Source of the DNA: Candidatus Omnitrophota bacterium
GTDB lineage: Bacteria; Omnitrophota; Gorgyraeia; B26-G9
Reading direction: 5' to 3'
Length of the DNA stretch: 64,000 nucleotides
Assembly: GCA_043814605.1 (NCBI GenBank)
Contig: JBDRJV010000018.1
Coordinates: forward strand, 21,545-85,544
Positions 7,213-63,568 of this stretch are shown here, one piece after another. A program made the translations under genes and the position numbers. Every line of letters starts with the position of its first letter. Position 1 is the stretch's first letter. The notes beneath the pieces are model-generated. The model ran no database searches. It was not told the origin of the DNA and saw only the letters and a program-made list of their open reading frames with translations.

Positions 7213-7217
7213 TAATT

Positions 7218-19540: not shown

Positions 19541-19547
19541 AAACCCT

Positions 19548-20652: not shown

Positions 20653-20717
20653 CAATAGACATAAAATTACAGGTATTGGGCTAAAAACAAGAAATATTTG
20701 TTTCTAAAATTTTCTGT

Positions 20718-25827: not shown

Positions 25828-25843
25828 TGGCACGTTGATTGCT
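25828..25843 (+). promoter_or_regulatory. Sigma-54 (RpoN) -24/-12 promoter for the giant gene
   Basis: The sequence TGGCACGTTGATTGCT matches the consensus TGGCACG-N4-TTGCW exactly, with 10 nt between GG and GC. It lies 19 nt upstream of the ATG at 25862, downstream of an NtrC-type activator gene. Confidence 0.7.
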
Positions 25844-25861: not shown

Positions 25862-28800
25862 ATGAGAAAAACAAATAAAATTCTAAAAATCATTGGTTTT
25901 ATTTTTCTGGTTATGGCAGTTATTCCAACCAGCGCGCAGGCGCGTTTAATTGTGCAAAAAGGCACGTCCACTATTGCTGCCGGGCAGACAACATATGTTC
26001 AGTCGATTAATGCTGTCAGCAGCCTTTCTAATGCTTTTGTGTTAATGTGGTCTACAGGAGACAGCGGGGCAAGTAATTCACAATATCATCAGGCCACTGG
26101 GGTGCTTACTTCTACCAGCCAGATTACATTTACGCGTCAGGGAACAACTGATGATTGCCGGATCGGCTGGTATGTAATTGAGGCAGAATACGGTGAGTTT
26201 GAAGTTGTAAAGAGAAATACCATAACTATCGGCACAACCGCAACTACCCAGGATGATGCGATTGGCGCGACTATTGACCAGTCACGTTCGTTTATTGTTT
26301 CTAATTCACGGATTGGAGGAAATGGCGGAACTGCTAATGCCTACAAGGGATATGCTACGACGCATTTTTTAAATGATACTACAATCCAGGCAGCCCGCGG
26401 GGTTTCGGGTACTTACACCACAATTGTAAGTTATGCTGTAGTGCAATGGTCTGCTGCTTCCGGGGTTACAGTGCAGTCAAAAGAACTAAGCGCTTCCATA
26501 GGTACTACTGAAGTAACTGATACAATTAACACAGCGGTAACTCCGGTGCAAACCTGGCTGTACGCAACGGCGCGGCATAATTCAAACGGGCTTTCACAGA
26601 CTGCGGTAAATACTTATTTAAAAGACGGAACAACTGTAGGTTTTAGCCGTTATACCGGTACTTATACCTCAGCCATACGCTGGTGGGCAATCCAATTTCC
26701 TGAAGGGGTTCCGGTACAGCGCCAGTCGCTTAGCGCTGCCAGCGGCGACCTTACAGAACCGGCAACATTAGCTTCCAATGTGACTATCGGCTATTCCTGG
26801 TCGGATAATTATAATGATTCCAATGGTACAGGTACAGCTTATCCCCGGCAGTCCTGGTATTCGCAGATTACTGCGGTTAATCAGGTAATAGCTACGCGTT
26901 ATTACAGCGGGCAGGCAGCAAACTTATCCATGCAGGCGATTGATACCAGTGCCTGGATCCCTCCATTAGTGACAATAACAATTACGCCGGATCCTTGTAA
27001 AGCAGTGGGTATTGGCGGGCTTGAAACCAAGCTTGTATTTAATCTGACTATGAATACATCTGTTGAACCGATTATAACCTATGACCCGCAAGGCGCAACC
27101 GGGCCTCAGGCTTGTACCGCAGGCACATGGTCAACGACAACATATGCTAATGATACATACACTGTTTACAATGATTACGAAATTAATGCTTCTACGGGTG
27201 ACGGTACTGCCGTAATCAGTGTTAGCGGAGCAAAAAGTGATTTAGGTATAACTATGTACCCGGATACTGATGATTCCTTTATTATAGATGCTACTGTCCC
27301 GAATAATCCGTCATATCCCTGCGGCAGTTGGGATTCCAGCAGTAAGACAGCCGCGATTCCGAATGATACCTGGCAGGAGATAGATAGCACGCCTTATTTT
27401 GAATGGACCGGAGCCAGTGACGGAGCTGGAACCGGAGTTAGCGGTTATTCTGTTTATTGGGGAAATTCCAGTATCGGCGAACCGGCAACTACTCAAGAAC
27501 AGTCTGCGGAAAATTATGATGTAGCTACTCCGGTAGATGACGGAATATATTATTTAAGGGTAAGGACATTTGATAATGCGGGAAATTACAGCGAGCCGGT
27601 TACAATATTTATTTTTCAGTACGATGCTTCTGCCCCAATTAATCCTGATGTTCCGGCAAATTCCTGGGAGTCAAATTTAAAACTAACTCCCATAACTAAT
27701 GATACCTGGCAAAAGGATGATAATACACCGTATTTTGAATGGACTGGCGCTAATGATTCCGGCGGTTCTGGGGTAAGCGGTTATTCTGTTTATTGGGGAA
27801 CAGACACTAACGGCGAGCCCGGGCAGACACAGCAGCAGTCAAATATGAATTATCAGGTAAGTACCCCGGCAGATACAAATACTTATTATTTGAGAGTAAG
27901 AACTTTTGATAATTTTAATCATTATAGTAATCCTGTAACTTTATTTATATTTAAATATGATGATACACAACCCACAAATCCCGTACAGCCTTGCAGCGGT
28001 TGGGATTCTCCTTCTAAAGGAAACATGCTTTCCAATAATAAGGCGCAGGGGTTTGGCCAGACGCCGTATTTTGAATGGACTGGTGCCTCCGATGCTAGCG
28101 GCAGCGGCGTGAGCGGTTATTCTATTTACTGGGGTATGGATTCAGAAGGCGAACCAGGCTTAACCCAAGAGCAGGCTAATGCGGATTATGAAATCAGCAC
28201 CCCAACAGGTGAAGATACGTATTATTTAATTGTCAGGACATTTGATGCTTTGGGTAATTACAGCGAGCCGGTTACTTTGTTTACTTTTATTTACGATGAA
28301 ACTAAACCCACCGTAACAATAACTGTTAGCCCGGATCCGGCCGGACACAGCGCAGCCGGGGAGTTGGAATTTAAACTTGTTTTTTCTGAATCCATGGATA
28401 TTGCGGTAACCCCGAGTGTAAGCTATGACCCGCAAGGCGCAACCGGCAACCAGACTGTAGATACAAATGGTGCCTGGTCAACCACAACTTATACTAATGA
28501 TACTTACACAGTTTATAACAGCAATGTGATTAACAGTACTACTGGTGACGGAGCCGCAGCAATAAGTGTGAGCACAGCTCAGGATGTTGCGCTAAATACA
28601 ATGTTAGCGGATACCAATGATAGTTTTACGATTGATACGCTAGTGCATCATTTTGTGATTGCTCATGACGGGATGGCAGTAATAAATATTCCGGAAACTT
28701 TAACCATTACGGCTAAAAACAGTACGAATTGTACAGTGTTAGATTATACCGGCCAGGTAACATTAAGCACTTTAAACGAAACCGGAGAAATAACCTGGGC

Positions 28801-31800
28801 TTTAGTCAGCGGAGCCGGAGTGTTTAATGATAACGGCGCAGGCCAGGATACCGCAACCTACACATTTGCTGCTGGCGATAACGGAGTAGTTACAATTCAA
28901 ATAACAGATACGAACGCGGATAATTTGGATGTGGAAGTAACAGACACGATAAATACTGATGATGATACTGAAGGAAACTTAGTTGTCTCTACTATACCTT
29001 TAGGCTGGTTTGTGATCTCGCATGATACGGCGGCAATTGCCGGGACTCCGGAAACAATCACGGTTACAGCCAAAGATATCAACGGCCAGACAAAAACCGA
29101 TTATGCGGGAACAATTAATTTAGATACCAATGGTACAGCAACCACAATTACCTGGGGACTGAGCTCTGGCTTAGGAATATTTGCTGATGGCGGTGCGAGT
29201 CTGGATACTGCTGCTTATACTTTTCATGATAATGATAACGGTGTAGCAGTATTTACAATAAAAGATACTAAGGTGGAAACAATTAATATCTCGGTAGAGG
29301 ATAACGGAAAGACTGATAATGATACAGAGGGAAATTTAATAGTTAGCCCGGGTGCGGTCAATAGTTTTATTATTGCTCATGACACACAGGCTACAGCAGG
29401 GATTGCGGATAATGTCAGCATTACGGCTTATGATACGTATAGCAATATTAAAACAAATTATACCGGTACAATAACTGTGGATACAAACGGCACAACCACC
29501 ACAATTACCTGGGCAAATGTTAGCGGCCTGGGTATGTTTAATGACGGCGGGGCTGGCGTGGATACAGCTACTTATACTTATGCTGCCGGAGATAATGGAA
29601 CAGTTACCTTAAGCATTACGGATACCAAAACCGAAAGCATTGATATTGATGCCAGTGCCAGCGGCAAGACTGATAATGACAGTGAAGGTAATATGCTCAT
29701 CGTGCCGGCAGCTATTGATTATTTTGTGATCAGCCATGACGGTGCAGCTTCTGCCGGTGTGTCAGATCAGATGAGTGTGACAGCCAAAGATGCTTACGCA
29801 AATATCAAAACCAATTATACGGGCACAATTACTTTGGATACTAACGGAACAGCCACAACTATTGATTGGGCATTGGTCAGCGGCAGCGGCGTATTCAATG
29901 ATAACGGCGCAAGTGTGGATACCTCAACTTATACTTTTGATGCTGCAGATAACGGTACAGCAATTTTTTCTATTCTAGATACTACGCAGGAGTCTATAAA
30001 TATTTCTGTCATCGGCGATACTAAAACCGATGATAACACAGAAGGCGATCTTAATGTTGGGCCGGCAGTGATCTGGCTATTTGACATTACGCATGACGGG
30101 AATGCTAATGCCGGGGTTTATGATGATGTGACGATTACAGCCAAAGACAGCTTGGGCAATATTATGACAAATTATACCGGCACAATAACTGTGGATACAA
30201 ATGGAACAGCTTCGGCGGTTTCCTGGGCTAAAGTTACCGGCCTGGGAACATTTAATGACGGCGGGGCCAGTGTTGATACTGCTACCTATACATATGCATC
30301 CGGTGATAATGGTGTAGTAGTGTTAAAGATCAAAGATAATGTGCAGGAATCAATAAACATCAGTGTTAGCGGTGATGGCCGGGTAGATAATGATACTGAA
30401 GGTAATTTAATTGTGGGACTTCCTTTATTAAGCCATTTTGTGATTGCTCATGACGGGGCTGCTGCAGCCGGTACTGCAGAAAATATTATTATTACCGCAA
30501 AGGACACAGTCGGCAATACGAAAACCGATTATACCGGTACAATTACTGTGGATACGAACGGAACTGAAACAGCAATTACCTGGGCTAAGATTACCGGAGC
30601 CGGCGTATTTGTAGATGGCGGAGTAGATGCAGATACAGCTACTTATGCCTATGCTGCCGGCGATAACGGAGTCGTGACCCTGAGTATTAATGATACAAAG
30701 GTAGAAACAGTAAACATCTCCATAACCGGAGATGGGAAAACTGATGATAATACTGAAGGGGATTTAGCGGTCAGCCCCGGAGCTTTGGATCATTTTAAAA
30801 TTGTGCATGACAGCTCAGGTATTGTGAATATCGCGGAAATGGTAACTGTATCAGCTCGTGATAGTAATGATAATATTAAAACAAATTATACCGGAACCAT
30901 AACTTTAGATACAAACGGCACAGCTACGGCCATTACTTGGGGCTTACAATCTGGCAGCGGTGTATTTACGGACGGCGGGGCCAGTGTGGATACGGCAACT
31001 TATACTTTTAATGCTGAGGATAATGGAGCGGCTGTATTCCGGGTAACTGATTCTATTGCTCAGACAATTAATATTGCGGTATTCGGAGATACGAAACCTG
31101 ATGATAATACTGAAGGTAATTTAGTGATTGGTGCGGCCGGCACGCAGACTACAGGCTGGTTATCTCCCACTGCTAATACCGGTGGTTTTACTAATCCGAC
31201 TGAGGCCTATGCTGATGGCGGTAGTTATGCGTATTCTCGCAGCGGCTATGAGCATCAATATAGTAATTATGGATTTTCCTTTCCTTATAATGCGATAATT
31301 ACCGGAATTCAGATAAGATTAGATGCCTGGGGGCAAAGAAACGGATATTCTTATTCCGGGGAATTATCTTGGGATGCAGGTACAAATTTTACCTCCAGCG
31401 GCTGGAGTACTCCGGCCATGACAACAAGCCAAGTTACTTATCTGAGCGCAAATGATCTTTGGGGCCGGACAACCTGGTCTAAGACCGAGCTGGCTAATGC
31501 TAATTTTAGGGTGAAATTAATTGCAACTGGTTCTACTCTCAGAAACAATTATTTGGACTGGGTGCCAATAAATGTTTCTTATGAGATCGGCGCCAATGCT
31601 GCGGCAAATAATGTTACGACAGCTGATGTGGGAGTAGGCAGCAGCGGAAACCTGATCCTGAATACAACTGTTACTAATAGCGCTAGTGTGCAGGATACTG
31701 TGACCTCGATTACTGTTAACAATACAGGTACAGCAACAGACGCGGAAATCACATCTGTAAAACTTTATTATGATAGTAATAATTCCAATGATTATACTCC

Positions 31801-34800
31801 TGGTGTGGATACACAGATCGGATCCGGAACTTTTTCATCTGGCGCAAAAACTTTTTCCGGTTTAAATATCAATATTGCGGCCAGCGGCGGCAATGAATAT
31901 TTCTTCGTGATTATGGATGTGGCCAGCTCTGCGGTTAGCGGCCATACCTTGGATGCAGTAATCCCGGCTAACGGTATCACGCTGACAAAAACAGGCACGA
32001 TTGAACCCACCCAGATTAATTCCAGTGGTAATAGAATAATTAAAATAATGCTGGATCATTTTGTCATCAGCCACGACGGTGCAGGTATTGCCGGTTCAAA
32101 CGAGACCGTAACTGTAACTGCAAAAGATGCTTTTAATAATACGAAAACTGATTATACCGGTCAGATCACCTTGGATACAACCGGTACTCCAGGGACAATA
32201 TCCTGGAGCTTGCAGAGTGGTAATGGTGTGTTTAATGATGGCGGAGCTAGTGTGGATACTGCAACCTATACCTTTAATGTCGCGGATAACGGTACAGTAA
32301 CTTTTAGCGTAAATGATACATTGTCTGAAACTTTTAATATCAGTATTAGCGGTGATGGAAAAACTGATGATAATACAGAAGGTAATTTGGTTGTGGCTCC
32401 GGCGGGAATAGATCATTTTGTGATTAGTCATGATACTGCAGCAATTGCCGGAATAGCTGAACAGGTTTCTGTAACAGCAAAGGATGCTTACAGCAATACC
32501 ATAACAAATTATGCTGCACAGATAACTTTAAATACTACTGGAACAGCTAATACAATTACCTGGGCTTTGATTTCCGGATTCGGTACATTTGTTGACGGCG
32601 GTGCCAGTGTAGACACAGCAACTTATACATTTTCTCCCAGCGATAATGGCCAGGCTGTGTTTACAGTCATGGATAATACTGCAGAAACAATCAATATCTC
32701 TGTAATCGCTAACGGAAAGTTTGATGATGATACTGAAGGCAATCTGGTAGTGGCTCCGGCAGGCATTGATTATTTTGTGATTAATCATGACGGAACCGCG
32801 ATTGCCGGAACGCCAGAACAAGTAACAATCACAGCCAAAGATGCTTTGGGAAATACCAAGATTGATTATACCGGTCAGATCACCGTGGACACTACGGGCA
32901 CAGCTACAACAATTACTTGGGCTTTACAAACTGGAAGCGGTGCTTTTGTTGAAGGCGGGGCTTCGGTGGATAGTGCTACCTACACTTATAATTCCGCGGA
33001 TAACGGCGTAGTAGTGCTGACTTTAAATGATACTAAAAAAGAGACAGTCAATATATCTGTTAGTGGCGATACCAAAACTGATGATAATACCGAAGGTAAT
33101 TTGGTTGTTTCCCCGGGTGCAATTGATTATTTTGTAATCAGCCATGACGGTGTAGCAACAACCGGGGTTTCGGAAAGTGTCGGGATCACGGCTTATGATG
33201 CGAATGATAATATTAAAGATGATTATATTGGCCAGATAACCATAGATACCAACGGTACACCCACAACCATAACCTGGACATTGGTTAGCGGTGACGGAGA
33301 GTTTGTTGACAGCGGTGCTTCTGATGATACGGCAACTTATACTTATGTCCTGGGAGATAATGGAACAGTTAGCTTAAGTATTGTTGATTATACCTCAGAG
33401 ACAATCAATATTTCAGTAACCGGTGACGGCAAGACTGATGATAATACTGAAGGAGATCTGCAGATCGCTTCTTCAGGAATTGACCATTTCCTAATATCCC
33501 ATGACAACAACGCACTGGCGGGCACGCCTGAGAATATTACGATTTATGCTAAGAACGCGAATAACGATACATTGCAGAATTATCAAGGCCAGATCACAAT
33601 TGATACTAGCGGAACACCGTCGGCGATTAGCTGGATTTTGGTTTCTGGAAACGGTATTTTTGCTGACGGCGGAGTGGGTATGGACACAGCTACATACACA
33701 TTTACAGATAGCGATGATGGTACAGTGGTTTTATCAATTATAGATACAGCAGAGGAAACTTTGAATATCTCTGTTAGCGGAGAAGGCAAGACTGATGATA
33801 ATACCGAAGGCAATTTAGTAATAAACCCAGTTGGCTTACATCATTTTACAATCAGCCATGACGGAGCTGCTTTTGCCGGGGTAGCGGATGCTGTGACAAT
33901 TATTGCCAAGGATGCCAATAACAATACAGTAACAAATTATACCGGGCAAATAACTGTAGATACGAATGGCACAGCTACGGCAATTACCTGGGCTAAACAA
34001 ACCGGCAGCGGAAGTTTTGCTGAAGGCGGGCCAAGTGTAGATACTGCGACATACACTTTTGTATCCGGAGATAATGGACAATGCGTTTTAACAATCACGG
34101 ATAATAAAGTGGAAACCATTAATATTTCTGTTTCCGGCAGCGGTAAGAGCGATGATAATACTGAAGGAAATCTTATTATCGGTCCTGGAACAATTGATCA
34201 TTTTGTGATCAGCCATGATTCTAGCGCAGTGGCCGGGATAGCGGATAATGTGACGATTATTGCTTATGATGCCTACAATAATATTAAAACAAATTATACC
34301 GGGCAAATAACTTTAGATACTAATGGTACAGCCGCAACTATTACCTGGGCTAAAGTTACCGGAGCCGGAGTATTTGTGGACGGCGGCGCCAGCGTAGATA
34401 CAGCAACGTATACCTATGTTGCTGGTGATAACGGCCAATGTGTTTTAAGTATTAATGACACCACAGCGGAAACTTTAAATATTTCTGTTGCTGGGGACGG
34501 GAAAAATGATAATGACAGCGAAGGCAATTTAGTTGTCATGGCAACCACTGTGGATCACTTTGTGATTATGCATGACAATAGTGCTGAGGCTGGAGTAGCA
34601 GAAAGCGTGAGTATTACGGCTTATGATGCCTACAATAATATTAAAACTGATTATACCGGACAGATAACCGTAGATACTAACGGCACAGCAACAACTATTA
34701 CCTGGGCTAAGGTAAGCGGTGCGGGAAGTTTTGTGGACGGCGGCGCCAGCGTAGATACAGCTACTTATACTTATGCCAGCGGTGATAACGGAGTCGTGGG

Positions 34801-37800: not shown

Positions 37801-40800
37801 AGAAGTGATTTTATCCATAACGGATGCAACTGCAGAAATAATTAATGTATCCGTAACCGCAGGCACGAAAACAGATGACGACAACGAAGGAATTTTAGAA
37901 ATTGTGGCTGCGGGATTTCATCATTTTAAAATTTCGCATGACGGAAATGCTGTAAACGGAGTACCCGAAGCAATCACAATTACAGCTAAGGATGCTAGTG
38001 ATATAACCATAACAAATTATGCCGGAATCATGACTGTAGATACTAGTGGAACAGCGACAACGATTACCTGGGCTTTGCAAACTGGTAACGGTACATTCAA
38101 TGACGGCGGTAGCGGAGTAGATACAGCAGAATATACTTTTGATGCGCTGGATAACGGTGTAGTAATTTTAACCATTACCGATACTACTTTAGAAACCATA
38201 AATATTAACTGTTTTGGCAGCGGGAAGACAGATGATAATACTGAAGGTAATTTAGTAATTAATCCTGCGGGATTAAATCATTTTACAATCACACATGATC
38301 ATAATGCCGTTGCCGGAGTTGCCGAAAATATCGTAATTTCAGCCGAAGATGCAAATAATACCGCAGTTAGCGGATACACCGGCACCATAAATTTAGATAC
38401 AAATGGTACGGCCGGTGCGATTACCTGGGCAAATATAGACGGTGCGGGAATTTTTAGCGATGGCGGTGCGGTTGTAGATACAGCCACCTATACTTTTGCC
38501 AGCGGAGATTTAGGTAATGTCACTTTAAGTATTAATGATACAAAAGCAGAAATGATAAATATATCTGTAACCGGAGACGGAAAAACTGATGATGACCAAG
38601 AGGGAAATTTAACAATCAGCCATGGAGTAATTGATCATTTTATAATTAATCATGATCAGGCAGCTGAAGCGGGAACTGCAGAAAATATTACAATCACGGC
38701 CAAAGATGTATATAACAATATAATTACTGATTACACAAGCCAAATCACTGTTGACACAACTGGAACTCCGGCAACAATCACTTGGGCTCTAACAACAGGT
38801 TCGGGAATTTTTAATGACGGCGGGGCTGGGGTTGATACCGCAACTTATACTTATCAGACAGCCGATAATGGAGTTGTAGTTTTAAATATTACAGATACAA
38901 CAGTTGAATCAATAAATATATCTGTAACCGGAGACGGAAAATTAGATGATAATACAGAAGGAAATTTAAGCGTGGGCGCAGGTACAATAAATAAATTTGT
39001 GGTTACGCACGATGGTAATGCTCAAGCTGGCAGTGCGGAATCCGTTATAATTACCGCTTATGATATTTATAATAATATTAAAACTAATTATACCGGCACC
39101 ATAACTTTAGATACAAACGGAACTGCGAATTCAATCACCTGGGCTTTGAGTTCAGGATTAGGAAGTTTTAATGATGGCGGAGTATATTTAGATACAGCAA
39201 CTTATGGATTTGTTAGTGCGGATAACGGAACGGCTGAGTTTACAATTACCGATACAAAAGCAGAAATAATTGATATTGATGTATCTGGTAATGGAAAATT
39301 TGATGATGATACAGAAGGAAACTTGATTATTGCACCCAGCGGATTAGATCATTTTTTTATTTCTCATGATGGTAATGCTCAAGCCGGGGTGAGTGAAAAT
39401 ATTATTATTCAAGCACAAGATTATTATGATAATATTCAAACTGATTATACCGGACAAATTACTGTGGATACTAACGGAACAGAAACCGCAATTACCTGGG
39501 CTTTAATTACTGGCAGCGGAACTTTTAATGATCACGGTGTAAGTATTGATACAGCGACCTATACTTTTGCTCCGGGTGATAATGGAGCAGTAACTTTATC
39601 AATAAATGATACAAAAGCTGAAGATGTTAATATTTCTGTAAGCGGTGATAGTAAATTTGATGATGATACAGAAGGAAATTTAACAGTTAAACCTAATGTT
39701 TTAAATTATTTTATTGTGGCGCATGATAATGAAGCAATTCAAGGAGTAGGAGAAGAAATTACTGTAACGGCCAAGGATAGTTATGCTAACACAAAAACAG
39801 ATTATACCGGCACCATAACTTTAGATACAAACGGTGATGTAAATAATATTAGTTGGAGTTTGAATACAGGCTCCGGAACTTTTAATGACGGCGGTGCTAG
39901 CGTAGATACAGCAACTTATACTTATGCTGTTGGCGATGCCGGGGTGGCTTCTTTTAATTTAACGGATGATACAGCCCAGACAATTAATATTTCGGTAAAT
40001 GACGGAGGGATTACTGATGAAAATAATGAGGGAGATTTAGTTATCCAAGCTTCTTCTTTAACCATTGATGCCGTGGTTAATGCATTATCCAGTGGTTATA
40101 TCGGAGCAGGAACTAGCGGGCAGTTAGTTTTAGATTTAACCTTGACTAATAATAATGTTTTAGCGGCAGATACAATCCAAACTCTTACTATAAATAATAC
40201 AGGAACAATTTCTGACGCACAGGTACAAACAGTAAAGCTTTATTATGATAGCAATAATTCTAATTCCTATACCGTGGGTATTGATACCCAGGCAGGTACA
40301 GGCAGTTTTTCCAGCGGGACTTTAGCTTTTACAAATATTAATATTCAAATTTCTGCAGCCGGCACAGAAGAATTATATGTGGTAGTCGATTTGACCGCAA
40401 CAGTAACTAATGCAGTAACAGTGGATGTGAGTGTGCCGATTAATGGGATTACCTTTACTAATTCTCCGGATACTGATGATGTAATCTTAAATTCTTCCGG
40501 AATTTTTACCGTTGATTCCGGAATTCCAGGCATTGTTTCCGGGTTAAGCTCAACAAGCCATAGCAATGCGATTAGTGCTTGGAATAATCCGCAATCACGC
40601 GATAATACTGTTTCTGTTAACTGGTCACCGGCAACTGATCCTGAAAGCGGAGTTGATGGGTATTCTGTTCTTTGGGATACAAATCCGACAACTTTGCCAA
40701 ATACTACTAAAGATATTGAACAAACCCAAACAACCGTAACAAGCACTGCATTATCAGACGGTACAGTACACTATTTCCATATCCGCAGTGTGGATAATGT

Positions 40801-43800
40801 CGGTAATTGGTCAAGTACCGCAGCCCATTTAGGGCCTTTTTATATTGATACGCAAGGGCCTGCTTCGGCAAGCATTTATCAAATCACCGAACTTGCCGGC
40901 CAAGATTATTTATACGTAACGGGAAATACAATTTATTATTCAGGGAATGCCTATTCTGCGTTTAATGTTTATGTTAGCGCAACGGATACAGGTTCAGGTT
41001 TAAAACAAGCTCAATTTCCGACTACAATTAGTGCCGGTGGTATTGATTCTACAGTAGATACAGGGGCTTATCAATTTATTTATACCTATGTTGTGAGTGC
41101 AGCAGGTGCTACTTATAATAATACTAATGTGATTGTTTATGATAATGCCGGAAATTCTGCTAATGTTCCGTTTAATTTAATGCTGGATAATACACCGCCA
41201 GCTTTAGTTTCTAATTTAACTTCCAGTACGCACACCGTAGGAATATCTTCATCAGATAATGATATTACTTTTACCTGGAGTGATGTTTCGGATGCGCAAT
41301 CCGGAGTTGCTGGTTACAGTTTTACTGTAGATACTTCATCAAGTACTTTACCTCCGAAATATCGAAATATAAATACCGGGGTGCAGAGTTATGCAGCAAA
41401 TGATTTACTTAGTGGTAATCATTACGCACATATCCGGCCGGTTGACCGTGTGGGTAACTGGACAGCTCAAGCTACACATGCCGGAGCATATATTATCGGC
41501 CGGGGACAATTGAGCGCATCAATAAATGCCAGCTCGAATGTGATTAGCACAGACCAGGAATTTACCGTAACAATGACAGTAGAAAATACAGGCAGCAGTA
41601 CAATTAATAGTGTTGACATTTTGTCTTTAACTTTAAGCTCAACCAGTGGTGCTACTGCAACCACTGTTTCAAATCCGAACTCACAGGATATTGGGCCAAC
41701 ACAACAGAGAAATTTCCCATGGACCTATACTGCAGGTTCAACCCCAGGAACCGTAAATTTTACAGGCTATGCACAGGGTTCTGATTCTGAAGGAAGTATT
41801 ATATCAAGTACAGTAACTTCCAGTGATATTGTGATTGAAAACAGGGCAGCTTTAATCGTATCTGTAAATGCAACCCCATCAACTGTAAATACAAGCCAAA
41901 CAATTACTATTGCAGTTACAGTTTCTAATACCGGACAGGCACAGGCACTTAATGTTGCCCCGAGTTTAATCCCTTCCGGGAGTGCCAGCCCCAGTATAAG
42001 TACTGGCCCGAGCCCGTCAACCGCAACAGTAAACGGAGGCCAATCACAAACCTTTACTTATACAGCAACCGCGAGTTCAGCTGGTACAGCAATATTTACA
42101 GCAAATATTGCTTCGGGTTTAGATGAAAATTCTAATGCTGGTTTAACTGCAACTAATGCCCAAGATTCAGTTACTGTCGAAGCAGCGCCAACGTATGCAT
42201 TAACTTCATCCATCGCAGCTGCGCCTCAAGCAGCTAATGTTGCGGGTACGATAACAGTGACAATGAATGTACAGAATACAGGTACAGATATTATCAATAA
42301 TATTGCGCCTTCTGGTTTAAGTGTTGGCGGCTCCTCATCAGATGCTATTTACGTTTCCGGGCCTGTTCCGGCAAATGTATCCAGTTTAATTTCAGGCGCA
42401 ACCCAGAATTTTGTTTGGACCTATACTGCAGGCACAACTTTAGGGACAGTAACTTTTAGCGGTAATGCCCAAGGCACAGAAGCTGTTTCAACCGCAACGA
42501 TTTCTAATGCAGTTACAATTCAGGCAGAAGCAGCAGCGCTTTCATCAAGTATTAGTGCCACACCGACAAGTTTACTCAGTAATGCGACAATTACCATTAC
42601 CATGACAGTTAATAATACAGCTGGTTCTGGCGGAGCAACTGCAGAAAATGTTAGCCCTTCAATATTAACCTTAGGCGGCACAAGTGCACAGGCAAACTTA
42701 TTAACCGGCCCTACACCAGCTAGTGCAAATATTAATGCCGCTAGTTCTCAGAATTTTATCTGGACCTATCGTGCCGGAACAACAGCAGGAACAGTTAATT
42801 TTACCGGAAATGCTTCGGGTATTGACGGTAATTCACAAAGTACGATAAGTTCAACAGCAACTACATCCAATAATGTGACAATTTCAACCTTAAATCCGGA
42901 GTGGATGTATCCGACTGGAACAGATATTGTGGGTCCTGTCCGCAGTATTCCGATTGCTTATTGGGGAATGTATAATAAAATTTATTTTGGTTCAGATGAT
43001 CATAATCTCTATATTTTAGACGGAGATACACACGGGCTTGATTTTAGTTATACAACATCAGGTGTAATCCGCGGATTACCCTATCCATCTACAGATGTTA
43101 AAGGAGAGGGGCTTGAGGATATTGTTTATTTTGGTACTTTAGGAAGAACAGTTTACGGTATTTGGGCGGATAATAGTTTGCGGTTTGAGAGGATTTTAGG
43201 AGAAGAACTTTCCACCACAGTGCTTTATGATTATGTGTCGAATATTTATTTTGGCACAACAGCCAATAGAGCTTATTGCATTGATGCTGCTGACGGAACA
43301 GATGTTTGGTCTAATCCGGCAACTGTGGGCGGGCCAATTGAATCATCACCGGCGATGATTTTTGTGCCGACTTTAGATTATGATGAAATTTACTTTGGCG
43401 CAACTGACGGAAAAATTTATGCGTTTAAAGCTGCAGATGGCACGGGTGCGAGAACTTTTGATACTGGCTTTGGCGCAGAAGCAGACATAAAAACTGCACC
43501 GGTTATTAGTTTGCAAAACCCCAGCAATAGCGGTTCCAGAAGATTAATGTTTTTTGGTACAGGTAACGGCAGGTTTTATTGTGTGAACACTGCAAATTTA
43601 AGCGCATCTACTGCAGATACAGGCTGGGCAACGAATCCTGTAATTTGCGGTGATAAAGTATATTCTGCGCCTTGGGTAGATGTAGATACAAGATATGTAT
43701 ACTTTGGCTGCCAGGACGGAAAACTTTATGCTTTAAGTTTAAATGACGGAAGTTCAAGAGCAAATTTTCCGGTGAATATTGGTTCTCCGATTGATTCCTG

Positions 43801-44035
43801 GCCTTTGGTTGAAAATGGTATTTGTTATTTTGGCGCAGACGACGGAAAATTTTATGCGGTTAATATTAATACCGGACAGATTGTTCCGGGATGGCCTTAT
43901 GATACCGGCGCTCCGATTAAAAGCGGCGCAGCATTACATGTTGTTTATGATACAGAAACCTGGGAAGTAATTGATACTTATGTTTTAGTGGGATCAGATT
44001 CTGGTAAAATATATAGTTTTAAAGTGGTACAATAG
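25862..44035 (+). CDS. Giant secreted surface protein (6057 aa): signal peptide, N-terminal triplicated unknown domain, FN3-like x3, 27 Big/Ig-like repeats in blocks of 7/10/10, three ~160-aa 'NNTGTISDAEI' domains, FN3-like x2, CARDB-like x5, C-terminal PQQ-type beta-propeller
   Basis: Uninterrupted 18.2-kb ORF with an RBS (AAGAGG) and signal peptide (MRKTNKILKIIGFIFLVMAVIPTSAQA). The repeats carry a conserved HFVISHDG...ITVTAKDAYxN...DxxTYTF...INISVSGDGKTDDNTEGNL core. The C-terminal IYFG..DG.LYA. repeats are typical of PQQ/BamB-like propellers. Confidence 0.85.
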   Translation: MRKTNKILKIIGFIFLVMAVIPTSAQARLIVQKGTSTIAAGQTTYVQSINAVSSLSNAFVLMWSTGDSGASNSQYHQATGVLTSTSQITFTRQGTTDDCRIGWYVIEAEYGEFEVVKRNTITIGTTATTQDDAIGATIDQSRSFIVSNSRIGGNGGTANAYKGYATTHFLNDTTIQAARGVSGTYTTIVSYAVVQWSAASGVTVQSKELSASIGTTEVTDTINTAVTPVQTWLYATARHNSNGLSQTAVNTYLKDGTTVGFSRYTGTYTSAIRWWAIQFPEGVPVQRQSLSAASGDLTEPATLASNVTIGYSWSDNYNDSNGTGTAYPRQSWYSQITAVNQVIATRYYSGQAANLSMQAIDTSAWIPPLVTITITPDPCKAVGIGGLETKLVFNLTMNTSVEPIITYDPQGATGPQACTAGTWSTTTYANDTYTVYNDYEINASTGDGTAVISVSGAKSDLGITMYPDTDDSFIIDATVPNNPSYPCGSWDSSSKTAAIPNDTWQEIDSTPYFEWTGASDGAGTGVSGYSVYWGNSSIGEPATTQEQSAENYDVATPVDDGIYYLRVRTFDNAGNYSEPVTIFIFQYDASAPINPDVPANSWESNLKLTPITNDTWQKDDNTPYFEWTGANDSGGSGVSGYSVYWGTDTNGEPGQTQQQSNMNYQVSTPADTNTYYLRVRTFDNFNHYSNPVTLFIFKYDDTQPTNPVQPCSGWDSPSKGNMLSNNKAQGFGQTPYFEWTGASDASGSGVSGYSIYWGMDSEGEPGLTQEQANADYEISTPTGEDTYYLIVRTFDALGNYSEPVTLFTFIYDETKPTVTITVSPDPAGHSAAGELEFKLVFSESMDIAVTPSVSYDPQGATGNQTVDTNGAWSTTTYTNDTYTVYNSNVINSTTGDGAAAISVSTAQDVALNTMLADTNDSFTIDTLVHHFVIAHDGMAVINIPETLTITAKNSTNCTVLDYTGQVTLSTLNETGEITWALVSGAGVFNDNGAGQDTATYTFAAGDNGVVTIQITDTNADNLDVEVTDTINTDDDTEGNLVVSTIPLGWFVISHDTAAIAGTPETITVTAKDINGQTKTDYAGTINLDTNGTATTITWGLSSGLGIFADGGASLDTAAYTFHDNDNGVAVFTIKDTKVETINISVEDNGKTDNDTEGNLIVSPGAVNSFIIAHDTQATAGIADNVSITAYDTYSNIKTNYTGTITVDTNGTTTTITWANVSGLGMFNDGGAGVDTATYTYAAGDNGTVTLSITDTKTESIDIDASASGKTDNDSEGNMLIVPAAIDYFVISHDGAASAGVSDQMSVTAKDAYANIKTNYTGTITLDTNGTATTIDWALVSGSGVFNDNGASVDTSTYTFDAADNGTAIFSILDTTQESINISVIGDTKTDDNTEGDLNVGPAVIWLFDITHDGNANAGVYDDVTITAKDSLGNIMTNYTGTITVDTNGTASAVSWAKVTGLGTFNDGGASVDTATYTYASGDNGVVVLKIKDNVQESINISVSGDGRVDNDTEGNLIVGLPLLSHFVIAHDGAAAAGTAENIIITAKDTVGNTKTDYTGTITVDTNGTETAITWAKITGAGVFVDGGVDADTATYAYAAGDNGVVTLSINDTKVETVNISITGDGKTDDNTEGDLAVSPGALDHFKIVHDSSGIVNIAEMVTVSARDSNDNIKTNYTGTITLDTNGTATAITWGLQSGSGVFTDGGASVDTATYTFNAEDNGAAVFRVTDSIAQTINIAVFGDTKPDDNTEGNLVIGAAGTQTTGWLSPTANTGGFTNPTEAYADGGSYAYSRSGYEHQYSNYGFSFPYNAIITGIQIRLDAWGQRNGYSYSGELSWDAGTNFTSSGWSTPAMTTSQVTYLSANDLWGRTTWSKTELANANFRVKLIATGSTLRNNYLDWVPINVSYEIGANAAANNVTTADVGVGSSGNLILNTTVTNSASVQDTVTSITVNNTGTATDAEITSVKLYYDSNNSNDYTPGVDTQIGSGTFSSGAKTFSGLNINIAASGGNEYFFVIMDVASSAVSGHTLDAVIPANGITLTKTGTIEPTQINSSGNRIIKIMLDHFVISHDGAGIAGSNETVTVTAKDAFNNTKTDYTGQITLDTTGTPGTISWSLQSGNGVFNDGGASVDTATYTFNVADNGTVTFSVNDTLSETFNISISGDGKTDDNTEGNLVVAPAGIDHFVISHDTAAIAGIAEQVSVTAKDAYSNTITNYAAQITLNTTGTANTITWALISGFGTFVDGGASVDTATYTFSPSDNGQAVFTVMDNTAETINISVIANGKFDDDTEGNLVVAPAGIDYFVINHDGTAIAGTPEQVTITAKDALGNTKIDYTGQITVDTTGTATTITWALQTGSGAFVEGGASVDSATYTYNSADNGVVVLTLNDTKKETVNISVSGDTKTDDNTEGNLVVSPGAIDYFVISHDGVATTGVSESVGITAYDANDNIKDDYIGQITIDTNGTPTTITWTLVSGDGEFVDSGASDDTATYTYVLGDNGTVSLSIVDYTSETINISVTGDGKTDDNTEGDLQIASSGIDHFLISHDNNALAGTPENITIYAKNANNDTLQNYQGQITIDTSGTPSAISWILVSGNGIFADGGVGMDTATYTFTDSDDGTVVLSIIDTAEETLNISVSGEGKTDDNTEGNLVINPVGLHHFTISHDGAAFAGVADAVTIIAKDANNNTVTNYTGQITVDTNGTATAITWAKQTGSGSFAEGGPSVDTATYTFVSGDNGQCVLTITDNKVETINISVSGSGKSDDNTEGNLIIGPGTIDHFVISHDSSAVAGIADNVTIIAYDAYNNIKTNYTGQITLDTNGTAATITWAKVTGAGVFVDGGASVDTATYTYVAGDNGQCVLSINDTTAETLNISVAGDGKNDNDSEGNLVVMATTVDHFVIMHDNSAEAGVAESVSITAYDAYNNIKTDYTGQITVDTNGTATTITWAKVSGAGSFVDGGASVDTATYTYASGDNGVVGLTISDTKKETININVSGDGKVDTNTEGNLVVGPTGLDHFVISHDTAAIAGVADNVSITAFDTYSNLKDNYTGTITVDTNGTADAITWAKVSGAGSFEDGGASVDTATYTYAAADNGVVTLSIADTKTETIDIDAQAAGKYDDDSEANMVIGPSDINDFVVSHDTQGVVNSAEPITVTARDIYQNIKTDYTGQITVSVTGESGEITWALAAGSGLFNDAGAGLDTATYTYNALDLGLVGLTITDNTADTINIVVSGDGKSDENNEGNLSFTSSYIVIDNLDSGYSENTVDNDWTTRTTGNEYGTNWRRDTTRNDGDWARWTPNITIPGNYEVFAFWSDLGTANATDSPYTVYYNGGNSGALDQNQEVNGNQWNSLGVYEFAVGTGGYVQLGDAANDDVCADAIKFELKGSAAAAANSVDSSSVGAGASDVLILDVTVSNNAINNDTITSVTVNNIGTISDAEIAAVKLYYDSNNSQDYTPGTDVQVGTGTFSSAAKTFSNLNITLTGSGTEKLFVVLDLAQTVDDGDSLDVQIPANGIILANAPDIADAALNSAGTRTVSLNLDHFVISHDGAAAAGIPEQITVTAKDEYENVIIYYTGTITLDTNGTAASISWSLQTGSGVFNDNGAGVDTATYAFNAADSGVAVFNVTDNKAETINISVSGNGKTDNNTEGNLIVAPAGLDHFVITHDASAIAGIADNVTVTAKDAYENTVYDYTGSITLDTNGTANAIEWALVVGFGTFNDNGAGVDTATYTFSASDNSTATFTITDTQSESLNISVSDGIGHNDNNSEGNLVVSAANLHHFVISHDGNAEAGVADNITIIAKDQYENTLTNYSGQITIDTDGTVGSIAWAKVSGSGTFVDGGIDADTATYTYNTADMGVVILSITDTTLENLNISVTGDGKNDDNTESTLNVGPGLIEYFTITHDGFALQNQAENITIKAYDAYNNIKTDYAGQITLDTNGTADAITWALITGNGTFNDNGPSVDTATYTFNTSDNGEVILSITDATAEIINVSVTAGTKTDDDNEGILEIVAAGFHHFKISHDGNAVNGVPEAITITAKDASDITITNYAGIMTVDTSGTATTITWALQTGNGTFNDGGSGVDTAEYTFDALDNGVVILTITDTTLETININCFGSGKTDDNTEGNLVINPAGLNHFTITHDHNAVAGVAENIVISAEDANNTAVSGYTGTINLDTNGTAGAITWANIDGAGIFSDGGAVVDTATYTFASGDLGNVTLSINDTKAEMINISVTGDGKTDDDQEGNLTISHGVIDHFIINHDQAAEAGTAENITITAKDVYNNIITDYTSQITVDTTGTPATITWALTTGSGIFNDGGAGVDTATYTYQTADNGVVVLNITDTTVESINISVTGDGKLDDNTEGNLSVGAGTINKFVVTHDGNAQAGSAESVIITAYDIYNNIKTNYTGTITLDTNGTANSITWALSSGLGSFNDGGVYLDTATYGFVSADNGTAEFTITDTKAEIIDIDVSGNGKFDDDTEGNLIIAPSGLDHFFISHDGNAQAGVSENIIIQAQDYYDNIQTDYTGQITVDTNGTETAITWALITGSGTFNDHGVSIDTATYTFAPGDNGAVTLSINDTKAEDVNISVSGDSKFDDDTEGNLTVKPNVLNYFIVAHDNEAIQGVGEEITVTAKDSYANTKTDYTGTITLDTNGDVNNISWSLNTGSGTFNDGGASVDTATYTYAVGDAGVASFNLTDDTAQTINISVNDGGITDENNEGDLVIQASSLTIDAVVNALSSGYIGAGTSGQLVLDLTLTNNNVLAADTIQTLTINNTGTISDAQVQTVKLYYDSNNSNSYTVGIDTQAGTGSFSSGTLAFTNINIQISAAGTEELYVVVDLTATVTNAVTVDVSVPINGITFTNSPDTDDVILNSSGIFTVDSGIPGIVSGLSSTSHSNAISAWNNPQSRDNTVSVNWSPATDPESGVDGYSVLWDTNPTTLPNTTKDIEQTQTTVTSTALSDGTVHYFHIRSVDNVGNWSSTAAHLGPFYIDTQGPASASIYQITELAGQDYLYVTGNTIYYSGNAYSAFNVYVSATDTGSGLKQAQFPTTISAGGIDSTVDTGAYQFIYTYVVSAAGATYNNTNVIVYDNAGNSANVPFNLMLDNTPPALVSNLTSSTHTVGISSSDNDITFTWSDVSDAQSGVAGYSFTVDTSSSTLPPKYRNINTGVQSYAANDLLSGNHYAHIRPVDRVGNWTAQATHAGAYIIGRGQLSASINASSNVISTDQEFTVTMTVENTGSSTINSVDILSLTLSSTSGATATTVSNPNSQDIGPTQQRNFPWTYTAGSTPGTVNFTGYAQGSDSEGSIISSTVTSSDIVIENRAALIVSVNATPSTVNTSQTITIAVTVSNTGQAQALNVAPSLIPSGSASPSISTGPSPSTATVNGGQSQTFTYTATASSAGTAIFTANIASGLDENSNAGLTATNAQDSVTVEAAPTYALTSSIAAAPQAANVAGTITVTMNVQNTGTDIINNIAPSGLSVGGSSSDAIYVSGPVPANVSSLISGATQNFVWTYTAGTTLGTVTFSGNAQGTEAVSTATISNAVTIQAEAAALSSSISATPTSLLSNATITITMTVNNTAGSGGATAENVSPSILTLGGTSAQANLLTGPTPASANINAASSQNFIWTYRAGTTAGTVNFTGNASGIDGNSQSTISSTATTSNNVTISTLNPEWMYPTGTDIVGPVRSIPIAYWGMYNKIYFGSDDHNLYILDGDTHGLDFSYTTSGVIRGLPYPSTDVKGEGLEDIVYFGTLGRTVYGIWADNSLRFERILGEELSTTVLYDYVSNIYFGTTANRAYCIDAADGTDVWSNPATVGGPIESSPAMIFVPTLDYDEIYFGATDGKIYAFKAADGTGARTFDTGFGAEADIKTAPVISLQNPSNSGSRRLMFFGTGNGRFYCVNTANLSASTADTGWATNPVICGDKVYSAPWVDVDTRYVYFGCQDGKLYALSLNDGSSRANFPVNIGSPIDSWPLVENGICYFGADDGKFYAVNINTGQIVPGWPYDTGAPIKSGAALHVVYDTETWEVIDTYVLVGSDSGKIYSFKVVQ
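28644..31140 (+). repeat. Coding tandem repeat block 1 (7 x ~357 bp Ig-like units)
   Basis: Periodic recurrence of catcattttgtgat...catgacgg every ~357 nt. Confidence 0.8.
32056..35614 (+). repeat. Coding tandem repeat block 2 (10 x ~357 bp Ig-like units)
   Basis: Same periodicity as block 1. Preceded by a ~0.9-kb insert domain (31138-32055). Confidence 0.8.
36487..40048 (+). repeat. Coding tandem repeat block 3 (10 x ~357 bp Ig-like units)
   Basis: Same periodicity as blocks 1 and 2. Preceded by a ~0.9-kb insert domain (35614-36486) containing a second copy of the 'NNIGTISDAEIAAVKLYYDSNNS' domain. Confidence 0.8.
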
Positions 44036-44265: not shown

Positions 44266-45396
44266 ATGAGAAAAATAATTTTTGTGCTGCTAATATTATT
44301 TTTATGCAGTAGGCAGGGATTTTGCGCGGATTGGCCGATGTTTAGAAAAGATAGTGTTCATTCCGGCCAAAGCACAGAATTATTACAGCCGCCATTAAGC
44401 TTGAAATGGAAGTTTGAAATCAAAGAAAAAATTATTTCTTCGCCCTGTGTTTATCAAGGCAAACTATTTATTGGCGCCCGCGATAATAATTTATATGCTT
44501 TGGATGCGAAAACCGGAAGTCTGCTCTGGAAATATTCTTCTGATGGCTGGATAGATTCCTCACCGGCAGCAGCAGGGGATAAGGTTTATTTTTGTTCCCG
44601 GGACGGGTATCTTTATTGTTTAAACATTGCCAGCGGGGATTTAGTTTGGAAATATAAAACCGGCGGCAATGATTTATCTTCGCCGTTAGTAGAGGGGCAG
44701 AGATTATTTTGCGCAACCGGATTCCCAAATAAATATATTTATTGTATAAATTCTCAAACCGGTGCGGAACTCTGGAAATTTTCTACTGAGCAAATGGTTT
44801 ATTCTTCCGCTGCTGTTTTAGAAAATAATATTTATATCGGTGCTAATGACGGGAATTTATACTGCTTGAATAAAAAGAACGGGACTGAAATCTGGAAATA
44901 TAAAACCAAAGGCGGGATTTACTGTGCATCACCGGTAATCAGTGATGAAAAAGTTATTATTGCTGCGGGTGATTTTGATTGGGATGTGCAGGCTTTAAAT
45001 ATCAGTTCCGGACGCAATATCTGGACTTATAAAATTGAGGATAATCAACCCACGCCAAATTATGTTTCCACAACAGCGTTGGCCCAGGGGTTGGTTTTTA
45101 TTACTGCCGGGTATCAAAACCAGCAGTTATATTGTTTAAATGCAAATAAAGGCACATTAAAATGGAAAGCAGATTTAGACCCGGCACTGAGGTTTGGCTT
45201 TTCTTCTTCTTGTGTGGTTACCGAAGATACTGTTTATGCAGCCAGCGGAAAAGGGATTCTGAGAGCTTTTGAAATATCAACCGGAAAATTAAAATGGCAG
45301 TATGGCTTAAGCAGCGGGGTTCTTTCTTCTCCGTGTGTTGCCCACGGAATACTTTATGTTGCGGATTTAAACGGAACATTATATGCATTAGAATAA
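44266..45396 (+). CDS. Secreted PQQ-repeat beta-propeller protein (BamB/YVTN-like)
   Basis: Signal peptide MRKIIFVLLILFLCS. Repeated 'G.LLWKY...G.I.SSP...VYF.S.DG.LYCLN' PQQ-type blades. The start is moved to the ATG at 44266 (RBS GGAGA); the ORF track begins at an upstream GTG (44224). Confidence 0.7.
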   Translation: MRKIIFVLLILFLCSRQGFCADWPMFRKDSVHSGQSTELLQPPLSLKWKFEIKEKIISSPCVYQGKLFIGARDNNLYALDAKTGSLLWKYSSDGWIDSSPAAAGDKVYFCSRDGYLYCLNIASGDLVWKYKTGGNDLSSPLVEGQRLFCATGFPNKYIYCINSQTGAELWKFSTEQMVYSSAAVLENNIYIGANDGNLYCLNKKNGTEIWKYKTKGGIYCASPVISDEKVIIAAGDFDWDVQALNISSGRNIWTYKIEDNQPTPNYVSTTALAQGLVFITAGYQNQQLYCLNANKGTLKWKADLDPALRFGFSSSCVVTEDTVYAASGKGILRAFEISTGKLKWQYGLSSGVLSSPCVAHGILYVADLNGTLYALE

Positions 45397-62312: not shown

Positions 62313-62328
62313 AAAAGTTAATAAAAAA

Positions 62329-63534: not shown

Positions 63535-63568
63535 AATTTAAATTCGGGGAAGTTTTAGTGATTAAGTT

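Follow-up and report, generated by a model that had tools for sequence, protein, structure and literature searches.

What does an Omnitrophota bacterium do with a single protein of some 6,000 residues, and by what route could such a protein reach the place where it acts? The question is raised by a 64,000-nucleotide stretch of contig JBDRJV010000018.1 (positions 21,545 to 85,544; Candidatus Omnitrophota bacterium, GenBank assembly GCA_043814605.1), which we call the window and whose own coordinates are used throughout. At 25862-44035 on its forward strand lies one unbroken open reading frame (ORF) encoding a giant protein of 6057 amino acids (aa). A sequence-only reading of the window had described an ordered, modular architecture for this protein, and the domain and motif searches reported here uphold most of that description. 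We give about even chances to the interpretation that the product is an inducible giant fibrillar lectin adhesin, depending on a neighbouring machine that resembles a type II secretion system (T2SS).

The giant gene and the modules of its product

The 18-kb gene contains no stops and no frameshifts, the latter a possibility that the sequence-only reading had considered for the repeat blocks. Mis-assembly, which it had also considered, is not seen either: the repeat units have diverged, and the same plan is found in independent assemblies. Units are only 42-73% identical at the protein level and 51-76% at the DNA level, and the longest stretch of DNA that recurs exactly within the gene has 34 nt, which makes it very unlikely that assembly collapsed or expanded the repeats. 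The ORF is real and intact, and not an assembly artefact. The mature protein (628 kDa) is very acidic, with an isoelectric point (pI) of 4.05, and rich in Thr, Ser and Gly (Thr plus Ser, 23%). The GC content of the gene is 0.42-0.45, compared to 0.32-0.36 around it, and this jump led us to consider horizontal acquisition, which we rejected. GC at third codon positions is 0.32, equal to that of the neighbouring genes, and the excess sits at second codon positions, i.e., in the amino-acid composition; there is therefore no sign of a foreign origin.

The modules of the protein, and the gene that follows it, are:

25862..25939 (+): Sec signal peptide MRKTNKILKIIGFIFLVMAVIPTSAQA, aa 1-26, read from the sequence
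25940..26986 (+): N-terminal head, aa 27-375, without a Pfam match; the part that varies among orthologs
26987..28639 (+): Ig-like domain, three FN3/Ig-like domains and a second copy of the Ig-like domain (Pfam, motif and ortholog comparison)
28640..31138 (+): Ig-like block 1, 7 x 119 aa, aa 927-1759 (motif, profile hidden Markov model (HMM), AlphaFold2)
31139..31576 (+): insert 1, ~146 aa, aa 1760-1905, no family
31577..32047 (+): ~155-aa domain, copy 1, aa 1906-2062, CBM93-like (AlphaFold2, Foldseek, weak Pfam match)
32048..35617 (+): Ig-like block 2, 10 x 119 aa, aa 2063-3252 (motif, profile HMM)
35618..36031 (+): Golvesin_C domain, aa ~3253-3390 (PF25275)
36032..36481 (+): ~155-aa domain, copy 2, aa 3391-3540 (motif)
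36482..40054 (+): Ig-like block 3, 10 repeats, aa 3541-4731 (motif, profile HMM)
40055..40531 (+): ~155-aa domain, copy 3, aa 4732-4890 (motif)
40529..41506 (+): FN3, Big_3_2/DUF7743-like Ig and FN3 domains, aa 4890-5215 (Pfam fn3 E 2.8e-9, two stretches)
41507..42856 (+): four CARDB-like domains of ~112 aa each, aa 5216-5665 (Pfam CARDB and periodicity)
42857..44035 (+): eight-blade PQQ/BamB-type beta-propeller, aa 5666-6057 plus stop (Pfam, motif, PDB relatives)
44266..45396 (+): prop2, a separate secreted eight-blade PQQ/BamB-type propeller protein (family scans, synteny)

The immunoglobulin (Ig)-like array is marked by the motif F-x-[IV]-x-HD, which occurs 27 times with an exact period of 119 aa (one unit has 120 aa) in blocks of 7, 10 and 10. 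A profile HMM of the repeat recovers exactly the same 27 units, so that motif count and profile both agree with the number and grouping first read from the letters. From an alignment of the 27 copies, AlphaFold2 gives a confident beta-sandwich with a predicted local distance difference test (pLDDT) of 95.2. The best PDB matches of this model are Ig-like domains of SbsC, filamin, glycoside hydrolase family 2 (GH2) enzymes and intimin/invasin, with template modelling (TM)-scores of 0.54-0.67 and with domains 4-5 of the surface-layer (S-layer) protein SbsC on top. We are confident in the predicted Ig-like sandwich fold, which bears out the term used in the sequence-only reading. The invariant acidic residues of the repeat (D10, D70, D80, D90, D107 and E111) would predict linkers stiffened by Ca2+. 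The same reading had suggested the Pfam families Big_1 and Big_3, neither of which matches; nor does any other Big family or other Pfam family, and no PDB relative was found by sequence. Judged by these searches, the 119-aa repeat is an unclassified Ig-like family.

Upstream of the array, the anatomy needed revision. The head had been taken for a triplicated ~110-aa domain, which does not hold: aa 27-375 give no significant BLAST match to themselves, and self-comparison finds at best four weak internal units of ~85 aa (z 1.4-5.8). No named relatives of the head were detected. The three FN3-like domains proposed next to it are present as described, with three PYFEWTGA copies at a 112-aa period (aa 486-815) and a match to Pfam Ig_Rha78A_N, an Ig/FN3-like family, at E 6.5e-10. 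What had been overlooked is that a ~110-aa Ig-like domain flanks this trio in two copies (aa 376-485 and 816-926); the stretch aa 376-926 also matches Big_13 (E 1e-4).

Three copies of the motif KLYYDSNNS, at aa 1967, 3446 and 4792, each lie in a domain of ~150-159 aa that comes after a repeat block. Copies 1 and 2 also lead the next block and copy 3 stands after block 3, just as had been read from the sequence. No Pfam family matches this ~155-aa domain above threshold. An AlphaFold2 model built from 4 sequences (pLDDT 72.7) has as its seven best Foldseek PDB matches chains of Bacteroidetes glycoside hydrolase family 33 (GH33) sialidases without exception (Sialidase26, BACCAC_01090, BDI_2946 and T. 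forsythia NanH; TM-score ~0.52). The alignments span ~137-158 columns, the length of the carbohydrate-binding module (CBM) at the N terminus of the sialidases. Sequence adds two weak hints: copy 1, and only copy 1, matches Pfam PF14873 (BNR_assoc_N) at E 0.0013, with 18.8 bits against a cut-off of 25, and PDB entry 6myv matches at E 0.37 with the motif SVKLYY in common. Because of the seven structural matches and these two hints, we use the label CBM93-like for the domain, and our confidence in it is moderate to low. CBM93 (PF14873), the N-terminal module of T. forsythia NanH and Bacteroidetes GH33 sialidases, is an experimentally demonstrated sialoglycan-binding module (PMC9472817). The two have in common a size of ~150-160 aa, a predicted all-beta fold and the SVKLYY motif; they differ in that the ~155-aa domain is not joined to a sialidase, as well as in the sub-threshold sequence score and the modest TM-score.

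Two different elements precede the first two copies. Insert 1 has no named family and no PDB relative by sequence, and it also stands before the ~155-aa domain in five related loci (L002, L003, L007, L009 and L010; see below). The second insert, which had been suspected of being golvesin-like, is indeed a Golvesin_C domain: PF25275 covers aa ~3254-3385 at E 4e-24 (85.6 bits, cut-off 31.6) and aligns over model positions 1-131 of 132.

Towards the C terminus, the FN3-Ig-FN3 stretch (aa 4890-5215) is 62-69% identical in orthologs. The CARDB-like domains are recognised as such by Pfam (35.3 bits, cut-off 22.7), and their number is four by periodicity, not the five first counted. The terminal propeller, assigned from the outset to the eight-blade PQQ type, scores 54 bits with PQQ_2 (cut-off 27.6), also matches Beta-prop_ACSF4, shows eight blade motifs [IV]YFG...G.[LF]Y and has 3hxj, designed Cake proteins and BamB as PDB relatives by sequence. 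The ORF ends 3-4 residues past the last blade strand, and the same is true in L009, L013, L016 and P0007, a full-length ortholog introduced below.

Immediately downstream, prop2 is a real gene whose likely start is the ATG at 44266, where it had been placed. It had been left open whether it was a partner or a degraded duplicate of the giant's propeller. The second option falls, as prop2 is intact, carries its own signal peptide and is conserved, and that of a conserved partner stands. Its identity to the giant's propeller is only 22-26%, and it is kept beside the giant gene in L001, L009, L013 and L016 at 47-59% identity. No clear intrinsic terminator was found between the two genes, only GC-rich hairpins: two similar ones at 44150-44240, GGGGCGATCCCTGTGTCGCCCC and GGGGCGGTCCTTGTGCCCGCCC, with no T-run after them. 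The folding of this region is slightly more favourable than that of shuffled controls (z = -2.2).

Apart from the signal peptide, the giant protein has no hydrophobic segment. A motif scan found no LPXTG, PEP-CTERM or tandem RTX motifs, and neither motif nor Pfam searches matched a type I secretion system (T1SS) retention module, an autotransporter barrel or a type IX secretion system (T9SS) C-terminal domain. This is in line with the absence of LPXTG, PEP-CTERM and T9SS sorting signals noted earlier. Four GGxGxD strings are present, all of them isolated and inside Ig repeats, none C-terminal.

Relatives in Omnitrophota and beyond

A scan with the repeat profile over one genome per species gave 33 loci. 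Those at 62-73% identity lie in metagenome-assembled genomes (MAGs) labelled Omnitrophota, PVC (Planctomycetes-Verrucomicrobia-Chlamydiae) or Planctomycetota, plus a few Guaymas-basin bins of other labels. We take the close relatives labelled PVC, Planctomycetota or other taxa as probably mislabelled Omnitrophota bins. The proposal that proteins of this kind are a hallmark of an uncultivated lineage is thus in keeping with where the close relatives are found. Four Guaymas-basin loci (L004, L006, L008 and L014) are giant-gene fragments on short contigs at 66-73% identity, in bins labelled Epsilonproteobacteria and Aenigmatarchaeota, which is probably binning contamination.

The close-relative loci contain open frames of at least 5,389 to 6,784 aa. 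In addition, the 31.8-kb contig CAYMFW010000035.1 (L003, L012 and L015) is in its whole length one frame of >10,000 aa, truncated at both ends and with Ig blocks of 10, 10, 4, 24 and at least 23 units; the family therefore reaches much larger sizes. Word-indexed protein searches returned only 5 fragments for the repeat, one match for the ~155-aa domain and one, among 5.8 billion proteins, for the head, and the family emerged when 1.84 billion cluster representatives were searched exhaustively with the profile. That search gave 2,862 proteins at E <=1e-3, 915 at E <=1e-10 and 116 at E <=1e-30.

The best match of the exhaustive search, P0007, is a 6130-aa full-length ortholog encoded by the gene of locus L010, and it has the same 7/10/10 plan. 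Sixteen of the 27 window repeats find their best match in the P0007 repeat at the same ordinal position, and the repeat array is therefore old and positionally stable. The 7/10/10 plan is also present in L005, L007 and L009, and L010, cut by the locus end, reads 7/10/9+; other plans are 7/7/10 (L002) and 10/9 (L011). The element before the ~155-aa domain varies among orthologs, being insert 1, Golvesin_C, a stretch in P0007 that resembles DUF2341/LamG as judged from its sequence rather than by a domain scan, or nothing. The head of the window protein is common to L007 and L011 at ~55% identity, and unrelated heads are found in L010/P0007, in L002 and in L005/L014. The C-terminal FN3-CARDB-propeller part, by comparison, is 55-74% identical across orthologs. 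As far as these alignments indicate, orthologs keep the C-terminal end and the Ig ruler but exchange the putative binding modules and the head.

At 35-43% identity, the scan reached loci in Gammaproteobacteria, Myxococcota and Thermodesulfobacteriota that encode proteins of 1,000-2,400 aa. They contain 1-3 copies of the Ig repeat (domain E down to 1e-26) interleaved with LamG, PA14 or pentaxin-like modules, and all 6 proteins that were scanned end in DUF6701. Their genes adjoin 3-5 prepilin genes (GFTLIE motif), and several have a secretin within 10 kb. NCBIfam gave no name for these proteins, and a literature search for DUF6701 returned nothing relevant. In the MSHA-type arrangement, MshQ follows mshDOP. 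The distant proteins appear to be MshQ-like, a view that is based on DUF6701 and on the pilin/secretin synteny and not on comparison with the Vibrio cholerae protein. It has been proposed that MshQ is functionally homologous to the tip adhesins PilY1/PilC (PMC12918778). The giant protein and the MshQ-like DUF6701 (PF20419) proteins share the Ig repeat family, interleaved lectin-type modules and linkage to a secretin and to type IV filament genes. The giant differs by its 27 repeats instead of 1-3, its PQQ-type propeller at the C terminus, the absence of any Pfam match to DUF6701 and the position of its gene, which in the window is not inside a pilin operon.

Control region and secretion genes

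The genes and sites that flank the giant gene and prop2 are:

21837..23789 (+): membrane sensor histidine kinase; two transmembrane segments with a ~280-aa periplasmic domain between them, then HAMP, HisKA and HATPase_c
23861..25273 (+): NtrC-type sigma-54 activator with receiver, AAA+ Sigma54_activat (E 8e-71) and HTH_8 domains
25828..25842 (+): sigma-54 (-24/-12) promoter TGGCACGTTGATTGC, predicted from consensus and correct spacing, 20 nt before the ATG
25852-25857 (+): ribosome-binding site AAGAGG, from sequence
45887-47740 (-): GspD secretin, 363.9 bits (GspD equivalog cut-off 351.35)
47737-48306 (-): GspC-like protein (family scan)
48303-48842 (-): GspM/PilO-like protein (family scan)
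48867-50750 (-): PilM-PilN/GspL-like fusion (family scan)
50719-51486 (-): ParA-like ATPase (family scan)
60573..63940 (+): GspE/PilB-type ATPase with MshEN, GspF platform protein and GspI-like minor pseudopilin (family scans), at the window end

L007, L010 and L011 also have the kinase in synteny upstream of the giant gene. In the same three loci, the activator, which has an intact GAFTGA at aa 225, is syntenic and 62-70% identical. The promoter element recurs as TGGCAY-N5-TTGC at a distance of 60-220 nt before the giant ORF in L005, L007, L010 and L011, i.e., in 4 of 6 ortholog upstream regions, and 5 of its 9 matches in the 1.06 Mb searched lie before a giant gene. The giant gene is thus probably sigma-54-controlled through the adjacent kinase and activator. 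An Rfam scan of the whole window, including the long 5' intergenic region, found no riboswitch or other known RNA.

Intergenic regions of the window carry runs of a 7-nt unit, AGTAGCG or AGTAGAG, with 16 matches compared to 1.8 expected by chance. The runs lie at 21785-21810, 23785-23859, 25275-25300, 25594-25644, 44037-44055 and 51504-51515 and often form long inverted repeats; a hairpin with a ~26-bp stem fills the spacer between kinase and activator. They look like repetitive extragenic palindromic (REP)-type elements. In L002 and L014, the gene for a REP-associated tyrosine transposase (RAYT) lies exactly between the activator and the giant gene.

The GspD-, GspC-, GspM- and GspL-like genes lie 1.9-7.5 kb downstream of the giant gene, and the GspE/F/I group follows at 16.5 kb. 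The order giant gene, prop2, secretin is kept in L013 and L016. L009 has the giant gene, prop2 and then GspI-, GspJ- and GspK-like genes in canonical order, all of them below cut-off. In that Omnitrophota MAG (L009:17457-20142), prop2 overlaps the start of the GspI-like gene, so a putative tip-complex operon sits directly behind the giant-propeller pair. The N-terminal domain of the window's GspE/PilB-type ATPase (60573-62312) is MshEN, the c-di-GMP-binding module of MshE-type ATPases, which hints at second-messenger control of the filament machine.

A proposed fibrillar adhesin and its alternatives

For the inducible adhesin we propose the following mode of action. The kinase would sense an envelope or environmental cue via its ~280-aa periplasmic domain and activate the sigma-54 enhancer-binding protein, which would switch on the giant gene. 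The product would cross the inner membrane by Sec, and the neighbouring T2SS-like type IV filament machine would then move it across or onto the outer membrane. Because the C-terminal part is conserved across orthologs and the heads are swapped, we take the C-terminal end (FN3, four CARDB-like domains, propeller) to be cell-proximal or machine-docking and the variable N-terminal head to be distal; the partner propeller and the GspI/J/K tip pseudopilins probably act together with the C-terminal end. The 27 Ig domains would form a stalk of roughly 150-200 nm, as estimated from the domain count. Lectin-like nodes would follow Ig domains 7 and 17, and a third would cap the stalk after the 27th. 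Each node would be a CBM93-like domain, preceded by insert 1 in node 1 and by Golvesin_C in node 2. Multivalent glycan binding by these nodes could attach the bacterium to a host or prey cell or to a surface. The analysis shows the ORF, its architecture with the predicted folds, the promoter consensus, the features of the regulators and the conserved synteny; expression control, export route, polarity and binding are what we infer.

A number of points weigh against this proposal. Every functional step of the giant protein, be it binding, localisation or expression, is one that we infer. The giant protein showed no recognised outer-membrane anchor and no sorting signal that would account for its retention at the surface. 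The promoter match is missing in L002 and L014, where a RAYT gene is inserted upstream instead, and rpoN is absent from the window. The CBM93 call is weak (18.8 bits against 25, a TM-score of ~0.52 and a model with a pLDDT of 72.7), and neither Golvesin_C nor insert 1 has a demonstrated ligand. The secretin cluster lies on the opposite strand, and GspE/F/I are 16 kb off in the window. To our knowledge, the passage of a ~0.2-µm rod through a T2SS would be unprecedented in size, and we know of no established role for a BamB/PQQ-type propeller in T2SS or pilus docking.

As a putative fibrillar adhesin, the protein would belong to a kind already reported from this phylum. The T1SS RTX adhesins LapA, SiiE and MpIBP have a tandem Ig-like stalk, ligand modules, an acidic composition and a different function at each end. 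The giant protein shares with them the long tandem Ig-like stalk, putative ligand-binding modules, acidity with many conserved Asp residues and differing ends. However, it has an N-terminal Sec signal and no C-terminal RTX/T1SS signal or tandem nonapeptides, its lectin-like modules stand at fixed positions within the stalk (7/10/10) and not only near one end, and its neighbour is T2SS-like and not a T1SS.

From the phylum itself come the Omnitrophota giant proteins of West-Roberts et al. (2023, bioRxiv 10.1101/2023.11.21.568195; Archaeovorin or dockerin type) and of Nielsen & Lui (2026, bioRxiv 10.64898/2026.06.07.730766), which are flanked by T2SS and type IV pilus (T4P) genes (gspD, gspE, gspF and pilins) and for which a role in attachment was proposed. 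In kind and in proposed role the present protein resembles them: same phylum, very long, repeat-rich, predicted extracellular, with T2SS/T4P neighbours and a role in adhesion or carbohydrate binding towards a host or prey cell. These studies cover proteins of >=10,000 aa (Nielsen & Lui) or >30,000 aa (West-Roberts), and the published giants are described with many transmembrane helices, SecA-like (DEAD-like) or dockerin domains, thrombospondin type 3 (TSP3) repeats or multi-enzyme content. At 6057 aa, the present protein is below both size limits, and it has only its signal peptide and none of the numerous transmembrane helices, SecA DEAD-like domains, dockerins or TSP3 repeats. A term search of the text of West-Roberts et al. 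for sigma, secretin, Ig-like, PQQ and radical SAM gave no match, and the two sections of Nielsen & Lui consulted do not describe this architecture, sigma-54 control or a partner propeller. Judged by these texts, a 6-kaa, all-beta family without transmembrane segments appears to be undescribed in this combination of features, i.e., the unclassified Ig repeat with its conserved 7/10/10 ruler, the CBM93-like nodes, the propeller and its partner, and the predicted sigma-54 control.

Of the alternatives, the one that survives best, possible yet unlikely in our view, is that the giant is a filament-tip adhesin analogous to PilY1/MshQ. Its propeller, alone or via the partner, would sit on the GspI/J/K-like tip complex, and the giant fibre would move outwards with the filament, and perhaps back again, instead of leaving through the secretin as a substrate. 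In PilY1/PilC proteins, too, a large N-terminal part that varies is joined to a conserved beta-propeller at the C terminus, and they share with the giant a Sec signal and the link to a type IV filament; however, no PilY1/PilC or DUF6701 family match exists in the giant, and its propeller belongs to another family (eight-blade PQQ_2/BamB-like, compared to PF05567). With the ORF ending so close behind the last blade, there is also no free C-terminal strand extension that could complement a PilK/GspK-type pilin. The Ig repeat shared with DUF6701 proteins (E down to 1e-26), which are encoded beside 3-5 prepilin genes and a secretin, speaks for such a tip adhesin, as does the proposal that MshQ is a functional homologue of PilY1 (PMC12918778). 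The gene order of L009, in which prop2 overlaps the first pilin gene, also fits, but the GspI/J/K assignments there are all below cut-off. The window's own GspE has the MshEN domain, but the nearest pilin gene in the window is 19 kb from the giant gene.

A bolder version is, in our estimate, distinctly unlikely. Here, the giant would be a ~0.2-µm "measured fishing line" on the tip of a T2SS-like filament, with 7/10/10 as its ruler, exchangeable lectin nodes, propellers docking to the GspI/J/K-like proteins, and the kinase and sigma-54 activator deploying it on contact. If this were true, it would represent a new class of filament-tip adhesins by which nanosized Omnitrophota catch host cells and perhaps pull them in, and the MshQ/DUF6701 proteins of Proteobacteria would share this ancestry.

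An improbable alternative is a released T2SS substrate, i.e., a soluble multivalent agglutinin or scaffold shed into the medium. Classical T2SS substrates are released, a GspD-type secretin is nearby and no anchor motif was found in the giant; on the other hand, the conserved C-terminal module and the partner propeller suggest docking, and the cost of a 628-kDa protein would argue against shedding it. More improbable still is a structural envelope component, an S-layer-like coat or sheath, instead of a target-specific adhesin. The top structural match to SbsC domains 4-5 would fit, but the match is one of a generic Ig-like fold (TM-scores of 0.54-0.67) and Pfam searches found neither SLH nor any other domain for S-layer anchoring. 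The acidic, Thr/Ser/Gly-rich composition (pI 4.05, Thr plus Ser 23%) and the large glycan/lipopolysaccharide (LPS) biosynthesis cluster upstream would also suit a coat, yet the sigma-54 promoter and dedicated two-component system point to conditional and not constitutive expression, and swapped heads and lectin-like inserts fit diversifying target recognition better than a lattice. Finally, that the gene is an artefact or pseudogene made of collapsed or expanded repeats, for which one could cite its highly repetitive nature, the metagenome-type sequence and the frameshifts in the related contig L001 (at 1.96x coverage), is effectively refuted by 18 kb without stops or frameshifts, by units of 51-76% DNA identity that share at most 34 nt exactly, and by the position-specific orthology of the 7/10/10 plan in independent assemblies.

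Omnitrophota are widespread, tiny, largely uncultivated and apparently host-dependent, and the giant adhesin proposed here bears on how they seize partner cells. The published focus has been on Omnitrophota proteins of 10,000 to 147,000 aa, and the present family is small enough for domain-by-domain expression. It has the same T2SS-like link together with a defined promoter, a defined pair of regulators and modules that are candidates for glycan binding, making the attachment hypothesis experimentally approachable. The unclassified Ig repeat family, with ~2,900 cluster representatives among 1.84 billion proteins, connects the giants to poorly understood MshQ-type pilus proteins, and the conserved 7/10/10 stalk with its swapped binding modules raises a testable question about spacing in multivalent adhesins.

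The genes further upstream form a run on the same strand as the giant gene. It is headed by a 464-aa secreted protein (16467-17861), helical and highly charged by eye, for which no Pfam or NCBIfam family was found. Next comes a cassette recognised by family scans:

17924..21777 (+): NTP_transf_5/S24-peptidase fusion, HprK-related protein, PqqD and radical SAM/SPASM protein

The cassette is syntenic before the kinase, activator and giant genes in L010 (1-1544) and L011 (213-3957). It resembles peptide-modification (GeoRSP-like) cassettes and may make a signal or modify a protein; nothing convincing as a precursor peptide for the radical SAM/PqqD pair was seen in the 15983-16466 gap. The glycan/LPS-type cluster occupies 86-15982 and comprises six GT4-type and two GT9 glycosyltransferases, 4-5 S-adenosylmethionine (SAM) methyltransferases, a DegT aminotransferase and a divergent ABC-2 (Wzm/Wzt-like) exporter pair. 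Its products could glycosylate the envelope or the Thr/Ser-rich giant protein.

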